From Verrucomicrobiia bacterium (GTDB taxonomy: Bacteria; Verrucomicrobiota; Verrucomicrobiia; Limisphaerales; UBA11358), in NCBI GenBank assembly GCA_035577265.1, contig DATLVR010000066.1, forward strand, positions 93,819-157,818: a stretch of DNA of 64,000 nucleotides. Direction: 5' to 3'. The notes beneath the pieces are model-generated. The model ran no database searches and was not told the origin of the DNA. It saw only the letters and a program-made list of their open reading frames with translations. This document shows positions 15,281 through 63,432 of the stretch, piece after piece. A program made the translations under genes and the position numbers. Within the stretch, counting starts at the first letter, position 1. Each line of letters begins with the position of its first letter.

Positions 15281-16654
15281 ATGACGTTGACTGAAAAGAT
15301 CCTCGCGCGCGCCGCCGGCAAAACCTCCGTGCAGGCCGGCGACAACATCTGGGTGAATGCCGACGTGCTCATGACGCACGATGTTTGCGGGCCGGGCACC
15401 ATCGGCGTGTTCAAACGCGAGTTTGGCAAGGAGGCGAAGGTCTGGGACAAGAACAAGATCGTCATCATTCCCGACCACTACATCTTCACCGCCGACTCCA
15501 AGTCCAACCGCAACGTGGACATCCTCCGCGATTTCTCGCGCGAGCAGGGCATCGAGTATTTCTACGACGTGATTGACGACTCAAACGGCCACTGGGTCTT
15601 CGACGCGTCCAAGGGCAACATGAAGAAGCAATACGGTTCGCGCTACGCGGGCGTCTGCCACACGGCGCTGCCCGCGAAAGGCCACACGCGCCCCGGCGAA
15701 ATTCTGTTCGGCACGGACTCGCACACCTGCATGGCGGGCGCGTTCAACCAGTTCGCCACCGGCATCGGCAACACCGACGCGGGTTTCGTGATGGGCACGG
15801 GCAAGCTGCTCATCAAGGTTCCCGAGACCATGCATTTCCGGCTCGAAGGCAAATTGCAGCCCGGCGTCATGGCCAAGGACATCATCCTCCATTGCATCGG
15901 CGAAATCGGTTTTGACGGCGCGACCTATCGCGCGATGCAGTTCGACGGCGAAGGCGCCTTGAACCTCTCGATTGACGACCGCATGACCATCGCCAACATG
16001 GCCATCGAGGCCGGCGGCAAGAACGCCATGTTTGAATTCGATTCGCGCACGGCGGAATACGTGGACGCGCGCGTGAAATTGAACGGCACCAAATCCACTT
16101 ACGAACCCGTCGCCCGTGACAAGAACGAGAAGTTCGTTTACGAACTCGTGGTGGACCTGAGCAAGCTCGAACCGACCGTCGCGTGCCACCCCGATCCGGG
16201 CCAGCGCAAGAAGGCGAAGGACATGGACGTGAAGCTGGACCGCGCCTACGTCGGTTCCTGCACCGGCGGCAAGACGAGCGACTTTGTGGAATTCGCCCAC
16301 ATCCTGCGCGGCAAAAAAGTGGTGATTGATACGTTCGGCGTGCCCGCGACCCCGGACATCGTGCGCGATTTGCAGTCCACCTACTGGGGCAACACCACCA
16401 TTTGGGACGTGCTGGTGAATGCGGGTGTGCAAATGACCGAGAACGCCGGCTGCGCCGCTTGCCTCGGCGGTCCGGTGGACACCTTCGGCCGCATCAACAA
16501 ATCCGGCATCAAATGCATCAGCGCGACGAACCGCAATTTCCCCGGCCGCATGGGCGACAAGGAATCGCAGGTGTTTCTCGCCTCGCCGATGACGGTGGCG
16601 GCCAGCGCCCTGACCGGCAAGGTCACCGACCCGCGCGAGTATTTGGGGAATTAA
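15281..16654 (+). CDS. leuC: 3-isopropylmalate (or homoaconitate) dehydratase large subunit, aconitase family
   Basis: MTLTEKILARAAGK N-terminus, Fe-S ligand Cys regions (DSHTC, GSCTGG, CAACLG). Confidence 0.85.
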   Translation: MTLTEKILARAAGKTSVQAGDNIWVNADVLMTHDVCGPGTIGVFKREFGKEAKVWDKNKIVIIPDHYIFTADSKSNRNVDILRDFSREQGIEYFYDVIDDSNGHWVFDASKGNMKKQYGSRYAGVCHTALPAKGHTRPGEILFGTDSHTCMAGAFNQFATGIGNTDAGFVMGTGKLLIKVPETMHFRLEGKLQPGVMAKDIILHCIGEIGFDGATYRAMQFDGEGALNLSIDDRMTIANMAIEAGGKNAMFEFDSRTAEYVDARVKLNGTKSTYEPVARDKNEKFVYELVVDLSKLEPTVACHPDPGQRKKAKDMDVKLDRAYVGSCTGGKTSDFVEFAHILRGKKVVIDTFGVPATPDIVRDLQSTYWGNTTIWDVLVNAGVQMTENAGCAACLGGPVDTFGRINKSGIKCISATNRNFPGRMGDKESQVFLASPMTVAASALTGKVTDPREYLGN

Positions 16655-16660
16655 GCCAAG

Positions 16661-16921
16661 ATGAAAGCCCGGAAGGTTCTTGAAAAAATTCTTTCCGGTT
16701 CGCGCAACATCCGGTTTGAGGATGCCTGCCGTCTGGCGAAGGCTTTGGGGTTTGAATTGGACAGAACGCGTGGCAGCCACCACATTTTCGTGCATGGCGA
16801 AGTGCCGGGGTTGCGGTTGAATTTGCAGCCCGACCGCAACGGCCAGATGAAAATGTATCAAGTCCGGCAGTTGCTGGACGCGATGGAAATGAACGGCTTG
16901 AGACTGGATGACGAAACATGA
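16661..16921 (+). CDS. hicA: HicA-family mRNA interferase toxin
   Basis: 86 aa with LGFELDRTRGSHHIF, the HicA core motif. Starts 6 nt after the leuC stop. Confidence 0.7.
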   Translation: MKARKVLEKILSGSRNIRFEDACRLAKALGFELDRTRGSHHIFVHGEVPGLRLNLQPDRNGQMKMYQVRQLLDAMEMNGLRLDDET

Positions 16922-17139
16922 AAACGCGCTATCACATCAACGTCTTTTACAGCGAGGAAGACAAGTGCTACATCGCCGACATTCCTGATTTGAAATACTG
17001 CTCGGCGCACGGAGCAACCCCGGAAGCAGCGATGCACGAAGTTTTGATTGCACAGGAACTGTGGTTGGAATCCATGCGGGCCACGCGCAAGCGCGCACCC
17101 GAAGCAAAATATCGCCCCGCAGTTTATGCGCTGGCTTGA
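16918..17139 (+). CDS. hicB: HicB-family antitoxin
   Basis: 73 aa, YHINVFYSEEDKCYIADIPDLKYCSAHGATPEAAMHEV fits the HicB N-domain. ATGA overlap with hicA. Confidence 0.7.
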   Translation: MKTRYHINVFYSEEDKCYIADIPDLKYCSAHGATPEAAMHEVLIAQELWLESMRATRKRAPEAKYRPAVYALA

Positions 17140-17161
17140 AACAAAACTGGCGACGGCTTCC

Positions 17162-17215
17162 GCCAGCGCCTTGACCGGCAAGGTCACCGACCCGCGCGAG
17201 TATTTGGGGAATTGA
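17162..17215 (+). repeat. displaced copy of the last 17 codons plus stop of leuC
   Basis: 52/54 nt identical to 16601-16654. The differences are ctg>ttg (synonymous) and taa>tga. Confidence 0.95.
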
Positions 17216-17249
17216 ATTCATCCGGCTTGCAGTTAAGGTGAATTGTCTT

Positions 17250-60962: not shown

Positions 60963-61955
60963 ATGAAAAAGCGCAAACTCGGTAAAAGTGATCTGGAAGT
61001 CTCGGCCATGGGACTCGGCTGCATGGGCATGAGTTCCAGCTATGGCCCGGCAGGGGAAAAGCAGGCGATGATCGCGGTGATTCGTTCCGCTGTCGAAAGC
61101 GGCGTCACCTTCTTTGACACCGCGGAAATCTACGGCCCGTTCCAGAACGAGGAACTCGTGGGCGAGGCCCTGGTGCCTTTCCGTGAGCGGGTGAAGATCG
61201 CCACAAAGTTTGGATTCAGGATTGGGCCGAACGGGGGAGGCAAGGACGGGTTGGACAGCCGACCCGCCCACATCAAGGAAGTGGCGGAGGCATCTCTCAA
61301 GCGGCTCAAGGTCGATGTCATCGACCTCTTTTATCAGCACCGCGTCGATCCGGACGTGCCGATTGAGGACGTGGCCGGGGCGGTGAAAGAGCTGATCCGG
61401 GCCGGCAAGGTGAAGCATTTCGGTCTTTCAGAAGCCGGTGCGAAAACCATCCGACGCGCTCACGCAGTCCTGCCGGTCACCGCCCTGCAGAGCGAATACT
61501 CCCTGTTTTGGCGGGAGCCGGAGGTCGAGATCATGCCGACGCTGGAGGAACTTGGAATCGGCTTCGTGCCCTTCAGCCCGCTCGGCAAGGGATTCCTCAC
61601 GGGGAAGATCGACGAAAACACCAAGTTCGACGCCACCGATTTCCGGAACGTCGTGCCTCGCTTCACGCCCGAGGCCCGGAAGGCGAACCAGGCCGTGGTC
61701 AATCTGCTCAATTCAATCGCCGCGCGGATGAAGGTGACACCCGCCCAAATCGCGCTGGCCTGGCTGCTGGCGCAGAAGCCGTGGATCGTTCCGATTCCCG
61801 GAACGACGAAGCTGCCGCGCCTGCTCGAAAACCTCGGCGCTGCCTCCGTTGAACTGATGCCTGACGATCTCCGCGAAATCAACGCCGCCTCCGATAAAAT
61901 CACGTTTCAGGGAGCGCGCTACCCGGACTATCTGCAGAAGCTGGTCGGTCGTTGA
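60963..61955 (+). CDS. aldo/keto reductase
   Basis: [43 protein letters not shown] motifs. Start at MKKRKLG. Confidence 0.85.
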
Positions 61956-62042
61956 AGGCAAATGTTCGCTCGTTTATATTCGGGCACTGTAATGAACGTT
62001 TTACGCGAGACCTGATTTAGGGCGAATAAAAGGAAAATAATC

Positions 62043-62915
62043 ATGAGCAAAGTTTGGTTTATCACAGGTGCCGGCAGCGGACTCGGAACAGGAATTGCCA
62101 AGGCTGCGTTGCGCGTGGGCGACCGCGTCGTCGCGACCGGCAGAAATCTCGAGAAAGTGCGCAAGGCTTTTCCCGACGTGGCGCAGGAGAACATCGGATT
62201 TGTGCAATTGGACGTCGCCAACGAGACACAGGCCAAAGCGGCTGTCGATGAGGCGACGAAGCGTTTCGGCCGCATCGACGTGCTGGTCAACAATGCCGGC
62301 TACAGCCTGCTCGGTAATTTCGAGCAGATGACTGCCGCCGAGATCCAACAGCAGTTCGCCTCGAACTTTTACGGCATCGTGCATGTGATGCAGGCCGCGT
62401 TGCCCGTCATGCGACGGCAGCGTTCGGGTCACATCATCAACCTCAGTTCCGTCGCGGGCGTGGTCGGGCTGAAGCACTGTGCGGCCTATGCCGCGACGAA
62501 ATTTGCCGTCGAAGGTCTTTCGCTGTCGGTCGCGACCGAAGTGGAGAAGTTCGGCATCAAGATCACCGTGGTCGAACCCGGCTTCTTCCGGACGGACCTG
62601 CTCGACGCGCAAAATGTCCGCTGGGTCAGCAAGGTCATCGAAGACTACGCGCCGGAGGGCACCGCCGAGGACATGTGGTCGAAATATAATGGCACGCAGC
62701 CCAACGATCCAGCGAAGCTCGGTGACGCTCTCGTCAAAATCGCTGCGATGCAAAATCCGCCAAAGGTGTTCGCTGCCGGAAGCGATGCCTTGAGCACAAT
62801 CACGCCCGCGATCGAGGAGCGGCTGCGCGATCTGCGCGCCCACGAAATGCTGTCCAAGGGAATGGAAGGTTCATTCCAGCGAGGAAGCAAAAAAGCTGAC
62901 GCAGAAAGGAATTAA
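62043..62915 (+). CDS. SDR-family oxidoreductase
   Basis: TGAGSGLG cofactor motif, NNAG, and [10 protein letters not shown] (YxxxK). Confidence 0.85.
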
Positions 62916-62919
62916 TAAT

Positions 62920-63315
62920 ATGGAAATCAAACGAAGCGGCTCACAACCGTCCAGTAAAGGACCGGCTGATTGGTTCACCGGCACGGTGCGCATTGATTCG
63001 CCGTTCAAGGGAACTGATCCCGCCCGCGTTGCCGGTGCCATCGTAACGTTTGAACCAGGCTCTCGAACCGCGTGGCACACTCATCCGCTGGGGCAAACTT
63101 TGATCGTAACCGCAGGCTGCGGGCGCGCGCAAAGCGAGGGCGGTCCGATTGATGAAATTCGTCCGGGAGACGTGATCTGGTTTCCGCCGGGCGAGAAACA
63201 TTGGCATGGTGCTGCGCCAGCGACAGCCATGACGCACATCGCCATTCAGGAACAACTCGACGGCAAAGCGGTTGACTGGATGGAAAAGGTCAGTGACGAA
63301 CAATATCAGGGCTGA
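62920..63315 (+). CDS. cupin-domain protein
   Basis: [20 protein letters not shown] .. PGEKHWHGA two-motif cupin pattern. Confidence 0.75.
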
Positions 63316-63317
63316 AC

Positions 63318-63432
63318 AAGGCAAAAATTCCAATCCGTATTTTTTCCCAATCTCCATCCCGCACCAAATGTCCTGCGGTTGCTGCGGGTCTTGGCTGACG
63401 GCCAGTCTTTGCTGACGGCCACCGGCGCGCCG
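63318..63432. repeat. R2 repeat, copy 3
   Basis: Starts 3 nt after the cupin stop: aaggcaaaaattccaatccgtatttttt..tcctgcggttgctgcgggtcttggctgacggcc.. with an internal gctgacggcc duplication. Confidence 0.75.

Follow-up and report, generated by a model that had tools for sequence, protein, structure and literature searches.

Gene-end repeats around accessory genes

We describe a 64,000-nt stretch of a Verrucomicrobiia bacterium genome (assembly GCA_035577265.1, contig DATLVR010000066.1, positions 93,819–157,818; hereafter ‘the window’, whose own coordinates are used throughout) in which the 3′ ends of three conserved genes, leuC, parE and parC, including their stop codons, recur 0.5–1.7 kb downstream, with small accessory gene cassettes lying between the copies. 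Repeat finding and blastn self-comparison, taken over same-strand pairs up to 12 kb apart, yielded 20 direct-repeat pairs. Four of these (leuC c1/c2, parE c1/c2, parC c1/c2 and parC c1/c3) share a layout that we term canonical: the upstream copy is the final 52–180 nt of a long gene and closes on its stop codon, and the downstream copy (the ‘orphan’) is in frame, retains a stop codon where the two align and is not preceded by the rest of a gene. The upstream copies of these four pairs end within 6 nt of the stop codon of a real gene, against 0.21 pairs expected under random placement (P = 5e-5), and in every leuC, parE and parC case the similarity is lost at the stop codon or a few nt from it. 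The closest relatives of the window leuC and parC are metagenome-assembled genomes labelled Limisphaerales or Verrucomicrobia subdivision 3, with protein identities of 88–98% for LeuC and 68–92% for ParC.

The leuC gene (aconitase-family large subunit, 15281–16654; Pfam Aconitase) lies on the + strand, as do all features below unless stated otherwise. Its last 64 nt (c1, 16591–16654, stop TAA), recovered by repeat finding and as a blastn self-match, return in frame at 17152–17215 (c2), there closed by TGA, and the two copies are 98% identical over 52 nt (blastn). Between them lies a hicAB toxin–antitoxin (TA) module consisting of hicA (16661–16921; Pfam HicA_toxin), which starts 6 nt past the leuC stop, and hicB (16918–17139; UPF0150). 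Beyond c2 follow a retropepsin-like aspartic protease gene (17250–17630; Pfam) and o17673, an internally deleted AbiEii-like nucleotidyltransferase gene (17673–18068; Pfam).

At the second locus, parE (parE/gyrB-type topoisomerase subunit B, 30918–32867; Pfam DNA_gyraseB, Toprim and DNA_gyraseB_C) ends in a 180-nt copy (c1, 32688–32867, stop TAA) that is repeated in frame at 33991–34173 (c2, stop TGA), with 85% identity over 179 nt (blastn). The pair brackets a hairpin-rich intergenic segment, R1, placed right after the parE stop (32872–33020), and a cassette gene encoding a SEC-C-motif/HEAT-repeat protein (33072–33977; Pfam). Orphan c2 is decayed, with radical substitutions and one extra codon, which suits a pseudo-end displaced long ago. 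It is followed by a second accessory block (34224–38631; Pfam) comprising genes for a HipA_2 kinase, a DUF3037 protein, PPK2 and a CitMHS transporter. Just upstream of parC, a second copy of R1 appears in two parts (38667–38714, 100% identical; 38799–38903, 85–95%) separated by an 84-nt insert. The order c1–R1–SEC-C–c2–[HipA_2…CitMHS]–R1′ is what a single crossover within the parE end would produce, if the partners were a fragment carrying [parE end–R1–SEC-C] and a chromosome already arranged as parE–[HipA_2…CitMHS]–R1–parC.

The parC gene (parC/gyrA-type topoisomerase subunit A, 39005–41131; Pfam DNA_topoisoIV) is followed by two orphans. Its 53-nt end (c1, 41079–41131, stop TGA) recurs at 41717–41769 (c2, 75% identical to c1) and at 42768–42820 (c3, 92%). 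Between c1 and c2 are an Unstab_antitox antitoxin gene (41182–41394; Pfam) and a RelE/ParE-like toxin open reading frame (ORF) (41391–41690), the latter assigned to its family by eye, without a Pfam or NCBIfam match, and interrupted by an in-frame TGA at 41523. Between c2 and c3 is a CDGSH iron-sulfur domain gene (42031–42705; Pfam zf-CDGSH), and after c3 comes a convergent MauE-like membrane gene (42843–43289, – strand). Orphan c2 encodes TRGWDEKATTTKIILA followed by the stop, matching an ‘EKATTTK’ allele carried by several relatives, and its 13 differences from c1 fall 2/2/9 on the three codon positions. Both orphans begin at the same gene position, about –50.

An earlier reading of this DNA, made from the letters alone (the sequence-only reading), had proposed that cassettes here are gained at coding 3′ ends, with gene-end copies on both sides and no recombinase inside. 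It had placed the leuC end twice around hicAB, the subunit B end twice around the SEC-C gene and the subunit A end three times around the TA pair and the CDGSH gene, and each of these arrangements is borne out at the positions given above. Its list of repeats was incomplete, the interleaved R1 repeat having been overlooked, and its view that five repeat families are alike does not hold: the general pattern stands for leuC, parE and parC, and fails for the KVEKLFG and R2 families, which lack the canonical layout (see below).

The arrangement recurs in other assemblies. Contig L081 (ENA, 5.9 kb, 99.4%; L numbers are our handles for loci and contigs used in the comparison) and contig L082 (JGI, 100%) each cover parE–R1–SEC-C–c2, L250 (Logan, 8.9 kb, 100%) covers parC with all three copies of its end, and L332 (ENA) covers leuC–hicAB–c2. 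The junctions turn up in independent assemblies from ENA, JGI and Logan and are therefore not an artefact of a single assembly, a concern that had been raised with the sequence-only reading.

Cassettes as insertions in a clade-wide comparison

Comparison with Limisphaerales-like Verrucomicrobiota, 78 of them for leuC orphans and 83 for parC orphans, establishes that the window cassettes are insertions at recurrently used hot spots, since parE and parC are adjacent in relatives, parC stands directly before the MauE-like gene and most relatives have no hicAB after leuC. Specifically, the parE–parC gap is 4–47 nt in 17 of the 30 relatives with both genes, and the HipA_2…CitMHS block is missing from these; in nine others the two genes lie 0.3–4 kb apart with unrelated genes and no orphan between them, and in many further relatives no parE lies within 10 kb of parC. 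The MauE-like gene directly follows parC in L003 and L266. Cassettes fixed and syntenic in all relatives, an outcome that the sequence-only reading had named as fatal to its proposal, are not what is seen; adjacent or cassette-free arrangements exist.

Orphans of the leuC end are present in five of the 78 relatives (L121, 26 nt; L140, 60 nt; L143, 42 nt; L150, 399 nt; L163, 30 nt), and a stop codon closes four of them (L121, L140, L150 and L163). Their left edges, taken with that of the window, fall at –26, –30, –44, –64/–68 and –399, although later erosion of orphans is possible. Orphans of the parC end are found in two of the 83 relatives (L275, 24 nt; L294, 126–158 nt), and L010 has a parE fragment before parC. 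A general scan added further host genes with orphan ends: a radical-SAM/BATS gene (L111, copies 96.6% identical), argH (L158), glmS (L264) and sensor kinases. By one strict definition, genes with an orphan end number three in the 64 kb of the window (47 per Mb), eight in 2.54 Mb of relatives (3.2 per Mb) and one in 1.78 Mb of loci from other phyla, a convenience set (0.6 per Mb), densities that are rough, the loci having been gathered around leuC, parC and a SEC-C motif and the window having been picked for showing the pattern.

The glmS case deserves separate mention. In L264 (8418–10964) the glmS 3′ end is followed, 2.5 kb downstream, by a 62-nt orphan, and the cassette between them carries GNAT, flavodoxin-like and Fe-S aldo/keto reductase genes, with no Tn7-like or integrase genes. 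The glmS 3′ end is the classical attachment region of Tn7.

The cargo is a TA or TA-like unit, or includes one, in about eight of 14 characterised events: hicAB, Unstab_antitox with the ParE-like toxin, MNT/HepT, ParE_like, two PIN genes and two AbiEii-like nucleotidyltransferases. Several of these genes adjoin the new stop codon, within about 60 nt of which lie hicA, the window antitoxin gene, the PIN genes of L150 and L158 and the MNT gene of L111.

The hicAB module appears tied to leuC in particular. Window-type hicAB is found downstream of leuC in only three of the 78 relatives (L099, L140 and L167), and a different hicAB (41% identical) occupies the same post-leuC site in L095, L103 and L141. 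Close relatives of the window hicA in 185,579 species genomes stand solely beside leuC, in four lineages, and the spacer from the leuC stop to hicA is alike in the window, L099 and L167 and differs in L140. The likeness of the spacer together with the leuC-only distribution fits a cassette that spreads with its gene end; the distribution does not fit an element hopping among unrelated targets. L167 has the order leuC–hicAB–o17673 without an orphan. The o17673 gene follows leuC within about 50 nt in nine relatives, and in L163 it is itself bracketed by copies of the leuC end. A further contig, L168, was considered as a second hicAB locus and set aside, since it overlaps another contig at its end and shows that leuC locus a second time.

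The parE and parC cassettes are sparsely represented elsewhere. The SEC-C protein has no close relative in the 185,579 species genomes (best match 36%), among which a donor arrangement was not identified; L265, a metagenome contig from another lineage, has a 63% homologue in the interval from parE to parC. A metagenome scan with parC returned a best match of 92%, with no conspecific strain and no empty-site strain for the parE/parC cassettes.

A foreign gene end in L150 and a recombinant end in L249

The clearest indication of where the two copies come from is found in L150, in which a 5.2 kb block separates leuC from a downstream 399-nt repeat of its own end. The block carries a PIN toxin gene beside the new stop, an HlyD/ABC/FtsX exporter and a methyltransferase gene (Pfam). 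The copies are 72% identical, and their 113 differences fall 15/9/89 on the three codon positions, a third-position bias which indicates that each was still part of a functional gene, in separate lineages, while they diverged. The orphan shares 92% identity with the relative L119, much as the 5′ 978 nt of the gene does (91.8%), whereas for the gene-attached end identity to any of 80 relatives does not exceed 77%. In 30-nt windows, identity to L119 falls just past position 5615, where similarity to the orphan starts, and seven identical bases, TCCTGCA, lie at this junction, which is also the left edge of the orphan. By these comparisons the gene-attached leuC end is foreign and the orphan native, with the block inserted cleanly at one point. 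As the attached end is phylogenetically discordant and the orphan concordant, the block came with its own leuC end. A similar codon-position bias is seen in the parC copies of L294, whose differences fall 2/2/12.

Within the species of the window, a JGI contig (L249; about 98% nucleotide identity, identical LeuC protein) has leuC running directly into the aspartic protease gene, so that the flank found after c2 in the window directly follows leuC. The left part of its leuC end equals c1 (GACGGTGGCGGCC), and the right part equals c2, with T at –45 and TGA as the stop, and the flank beyond it is also that of c2. Such an end is expected of either the pre-insertion substrate or the post-excision product of one c1/c2 crossover, and recombination between the two leuC-end copies has therefore happened within the species, whichever its direction. 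Elsewhere in the contig (7795–7943), the first 148 nt of hicB are joined, through the microhomology CAGGAA, to the o17673 3′ end (compared with window 16917–17064 and 18010), and o17673 is internally deleted in the window; the region downstream of leuC is undergoing reshuffling within the species. L249 was at first read as a naive empty site; given the hicB 5′ fragment that it also carries, it may represent either a pre-insertion or a post-excision state.

A possible trace of a second recombinant comes from L083, a short Logan contig (SRR7686991), which joins the SEC-C gene, the left part of parE c2, the right part of c1 and R1. The junction hints at an excised circle or a tandem copy, although it falls where c1 and c2 are identical for 32 nt, in an assembly made with k=31, and may be a graph artefact. 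Separately, the window and the strain of L081 (99.3%) are distinguished by a cluster of five synonymous changes in a 30-nt stretch of parE c1 (32750–32790), three of which match c2, so that the cluster looks like a gene-conversion or recombination patch.

Recombinases and structured RNAs

Pfam scans found no match to an integrase or recombinase family among the roughly 60 major ORFs of the window, in agreement with the sequence-only reading. Its claim that the sole transposase-like genes are two of the RAYT/IS200-like type (57671–58171, and 30118–30741 on the – strand) is likewise upheld by Pfam and NCBIfam. These genes sit away from the cassettes and have their own repetitive extragenic palindromes (REPs), the sequences of which are unlike the gene-end repeats. 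No integrase was seen in the 5.2 kb insert of L150 or in the 2.5 kb glmS cassette of L264. Nor was one seen among the Pfam families present in at least two of 139 ORF clusters downstream of relatives’ leuC and parC, which is weak evidence, as singletons were not displayed. Rfam, structured-repeat and tRNA/tmRNA scans of the window gave no match, and the repeats are therefore not tRNA-type attachment (att) sites or known RNAs. Inspection by eye revealed no shared motif at the right ends of the cassettes.

Possible routes of cassette gain

We lean, by a modest margin of confidence, towards homology-anchored integration of a foreign gene end linked to a cassette, without any recombinase encoded by the element, and either of the Campbell type or akin to homology-facilitated illegitimate recombination (HFIR). 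The incoming DNA would be a single piece consisting of another lineage’s version of the conserved gene’s 3′ end, the stop codon and the cassette, and such a history could account for the leuC::hicAB, parE::R1-SEC-C, parC::TA and parC::CDGSH units. The shared gene end would recombine with the resident gene through host recombination functions, either by one reciprocal exchange with a fragment that has been circularised (Campbell type) or by one-ended homologous invasion of a linear fragment, the other end of which is joined to the displaced resident strand (HFIR-like). The gene would stay intact, ending in the imported copy, and the resident end would be displaced past the cassette to decay there as an orphan. 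Similarity between the copies would end at the stop codon because the donor and recipient contexts diverge at that point. The flanking repeats might then recombine again, resulting in excision or gene conversion. DNA flanked by repeats is prone to loss, so that units containing addiction modules would persist, and we infer that TA modules are over-represented because they penalise loss between the repeats. The molecular route (circle or linear fragment, and dependence on RecA) is also something that we infer, and either route would give the single-point insertion of L150. Campbell-type crossover and homology-facilitated illegitimate recombination were both among the mechanisms listed in the sequence-only reading, and it is the foreign end and native orphan of L150, together with the recombinant leuC end of L249, that favour them.

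A number of observations weigh against homology-anchored integration, and several are ones that a fixed attachment site would accommodate. The crossover in L150 lies at the very edge of the homology, on just seven identical nt, a configuration that is unusual for RecA-mediated crossing-over and characteristic of joining that is site-specific or guided by microhomology. The leuC orphans of the window and L140 start within 4 nt of each other, which also fits a fixed att core, as would the shared left edge of the two window parC orphans. The integrase scan spans the 64 kb of the window, and a trans-acting recombinase elsewhere in the genome is possible. Beyond L150 the foreign copy is unassignable, the parE and parC segments of the window and those of L294 being too short or conserved, and the hicB fragment of L249 means that this contig may have lost the insert by excision rather than never having received it. 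Most hot-spot insertions in relatives have no orphan (the nine of 30 parE–parC cases; L095, L103, L141 and L167), and other routes must therefore operate too. Finally, the gene-end insertion model as it stands does not account for the KVEKLFG and R2 families.

The strongest competitor, which we nonetheless regard as unlikely, is site-specific integration, with the cassettes as remnants resembling cis-mobilizable elements (CIMEs), or as satellites, of integrative elements that bring a replacement gene end, as e14 and phage 21 do in icd, and whose integrase targets the leuC, parE or parC 3′ end and has been deleted or acts in trans. Besides the narrow L150 junction and the coincident orphan boundaries at leuC and parC, this explanation can point to the icd–e14–icdC arrangement, whose anatomy is identical, with a foreign replacement end and a native orphan (PMC13626634). 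It has to contend with at least five crossover positions in leuC alone and with the lack of an integrase in any cassette, including those of 5.2 kb (L150) and 2.5 kb (L264), or in the 64 kb window; the 139 downstream ORF clusters of relatives, at their limited resolution, yield no recurrent integrase family either. A collection of unrelated rearrangements (tandem duplications, deletions and REP/RAYT activity) that merely mimics one mechanism seems improbable to us. The irregular KVEKLFG/X′ and R2 families, the microhomology deletions downstream of leuC and the RAYT/REP elements adjoining two regions would suit it, but it would leave four canonical pairs where 0.21 are expected and the same layout at no fewer than seven different conserved genes across the clade, and the REP sequences are unlike the gene-end repeats.

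Slightly less probable again is a true long target or local tandem duplication, arising by a staggered break or replication slippage, in which both copies are native. This is the reading given to analogous restriction-modification cases (PMC2853133), and the near-identity of the copies at the window leuC (98%) and in L111 (96.6%) would be natural under it; the one foreign and one native copy of L150 would not, nor would the third-position bias of L150, L294 and window parC c2, and the end of similarity at the stop codon in most events is left unexplained. That the arrangement is an assembly artefact, with strain variants concatenated at a shared gene end, we consider very improbable indeed. 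Short-read contigs do break at the repeats (L084, L331 and L334), and the Logan contig L083 switches copies across a 32-nt identical stretch, but the same cis arrangement is found in different samples and with different assemblers (L081, 5.9 kb; L082; L250, 8.9 kb; L332), and the copies are 75–98% identical, with one visibly decayed.

Relation to described elements

The class ‘insertion with long target duplication’ was reportedly introduced by Nobusato et al. in 2000. The sequence-only reading held that this mode of cassette gain cannot be assigned to a described class, which is not so, as this class has the same anatomy (PMC2853133). In it, restriction-modification units are flanked by long direct repeats of variable length (30–420 bp), with no transposase or integrase; a stop or start codon often lies within the repeats, so that the target gene stays intact (Furuta, Abe & Kobayashi 2010; PMC2853133). 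The hosts include Helicobacter, Haemophilus, Neisseria and others (PMC2853133), and the mechanism is described as unresolved (PMC2853133; summarised in PMC3874152). The window resembles these cases in its repeats of 52–180 nt, in the single-copy or adjacent arrangements of relatives and in having no mobility gene in or beside the inserts (Pfam). It differs in its cargo of TA modules and assorted single genes and in its verrucomicrobial host; moreover, the repeats there are read as duplicates of the target, whereas in L150 the attached copy is foreign.

A second parallel is the e14 element, or phage 21, in icd. According to PMC13626634, citing Hill et al. 1989, the element brings an alternative icd 3′ end and the native end is left as the icdC orphan; the two copies differ largely at synonymous sites. 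The e14 element is a prophage of 15 kb that encodes its own integrase and uses a fixed att core. The replacement end and displaced native orphan of L150 are alike, and the window layout is consistent with this. Unlike e14, the units described here are 0.5–5 kb, have no recombinase and show many crossover positions in one gene.

CIMEs consist of integrase-less DNA between att repeats derived from a gene 3′ end, with tandem accretion known in streptococci. They are decay products of integrative and conjugative or integrative and mobilizable elements, and are mobilised by the integrase of a related element. The three parC ends recall such tandem units behind one gene, but no such element or integrase is seen here. 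Chromosomal integron arrays, often rich in TA modules, likewise consist of small, promoter-poor cassettes in one orientation; in contrast to them, the present cassettes have no IntI and no attC hairpin sites, and their boundaries are gene-end copies. The H47 genomic island has imperfect direct repeats and is excised by host functions, without an encoded site-specific recombinase (PMC5426353). The repeats of H47 and of ‘unconventional circularizable structures’ differ from those described here in not being copies of gene termini, and no imported replacement end is involved.

In HFIR, foreign DNA with homology on one side is joined at its other end by illegitimate recombination (PMC3240628), and conserved genes can therefore serve as anchors. 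The L150 junction, in register within a homologous gene and with a phylogenetically discordant imported end, is what would place it with the Campbell/HFIR class. HFIR is usually accompanied by loss of recipient DNA, whereas the recipient DNA here is kept and duplicated, and both L150 junctions map to the same point.

We would go further only tentatively, and hold it possible though rather doubtful that these loci reflect a recombinase-free form of mobility, in which cassettes linked to a spare last 25–400 nt of an essential gene use it as a homology arm, are knocked in by single crossover through host functions, preserve an intact target gene, leave the native end as an orphan and can be re-excised as circles, with addiction penalising their loss. 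The spread of TA and restriction-modification modules that carry no mobility gene is a long-standing loose end, and the class has been catalogued since 2000; what is new here is that the gene-side repeat can be an imported, xenologous gene end, which gives the old class a testable mechanism. If this is general, restriction-modification systems catalogued under ‘insertion with long target duplication’ would likewise owe their repeats to imported gene ends rather than duplicated targets. In this uncultured verrucomicrobial lineage of soil and freshwater, insertions have repeatedly entered at the 3′ ends of leuC, parE/parC, argH, glmS and a radical-SAM gene. Two practical consequences follow for annotation and phylogeny: orphan ends are open to being miscalled as small ORFs or fused with neighbours, and housekeeping genes used in phylogeny can be chimeric at the 3′ end.

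The KVEKLFG and R2 repeat families

Two further families, grouped by the sequence-only reading with the gene-end repeats, lie in the last 10 kb of the window. One is a duplicated unit made up of a gene, X′, and a family of small ORFs, S, whose products end in KVEKLFG; neither X′ nor S matched a family in Pfam or NCBIfam. A 99-nt remnant of the X′ 3′ end (54594–54692) is followed by the small ORF S1 (54725–54835), then by X′ itself (about 55243–55605), a 30-nt remnant of the S end (55620–55649), the EEP gene (55645–56433; Pfam Exo_endo_phos) and a complete small ORF, S3 (56433–56591), so that 54594–54835 corresponds to 55507–55649 and 56433–56591. The repeat around the EEP gene is thus real, but its layout reverses the canonical order, with the remnant upstream and the complete S3 downstream. 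A 5′-truncated member of the S family, S4, is found at 59780–59863.

The other family, R2, has three copies (R2a, 58338–58421; R2b, 59710–59793, which runs into S4; R2c, 63321–63404) that are 63–85% identical, varying with pair and method. As proposed, they lie around a GH43-like gene (58523–59683) and an AraC–AKR–SDR–cupin block (59885–63315). Their proposed origin from a gene 3′ end fails: each lies about 90–105 nt upstream of the start of a + strand gene and is the terminus of no adjacent gene. The AraC gene, earlier placed on the – strand, is in fact on the + strand (59885–60787). We also considered a – strand gene whose 3′ end would be R2, and rejected this in view of the strand of AraC and of there being no – strand gene adjoining R2c. 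Of the three copies, R2c alone is more similar to the 3′ part of X′ than are shuffled controls (score 45 against a maximum of 34).

Between these families, the RAYT/IS200-like gene at 57671–58171 lies between 100-nt direct repeats (57578–57678 and 58191–58290, 77% identical). An inverted partial copy of the repeat is found at 56611–56667, and the interval holds a – strand ORF (56732–57331, 199 aa) with no family match.

Further features of the window

A REP-like array of at least five copies with a 107-nt period (29777–30958, 72–94% identical) lies immediately upstream of parE and flanks the – strand RAYT gene at 30118–30741, which matches NCBIfam REP_Tyr_transpos below its cut-off. The last unit of the array overlaps the start of the longest parE ORF (30918); gene callers place the parE start at 31020. 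Directly after the orphan parE end, the HipA_2 gene and the DUF3037 gene overlapping it (34224–35872) are possibly a TA-like pair at the head of the cassette; the HipA_2 ORF was initially read as beginning inside the orphan. NCBIfam offered no name for X′, S, a Zn-finger-like ORF, o17673, the ParE-like toxin, HipA_2 or DUF3037.

The TGA at 41523 in the RelE/ParE-like toxin ORF is also present in the independent assembly L334, and is expected in the Logan contigs L250 and L333, which are 100% identical across the region; the ORF is either a decaying toxin gene or one with a recoded stop. Positions 1–74 of L334, an ENA metagenome contig, are Illumina adapter/index sequence, and its genomic part begins at window position 41172. 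Last, two tandem genes encode paralogous membrane proteins with an N-terminal GYF_2 domain (19034–19915, GYF_2 with DUF4190; 19903–20934, GYF_2 with DUF975). The 5′ ends of these genes are 71–80% identical, and they form the sole repeat pair in the window that reflects plain paralogy.

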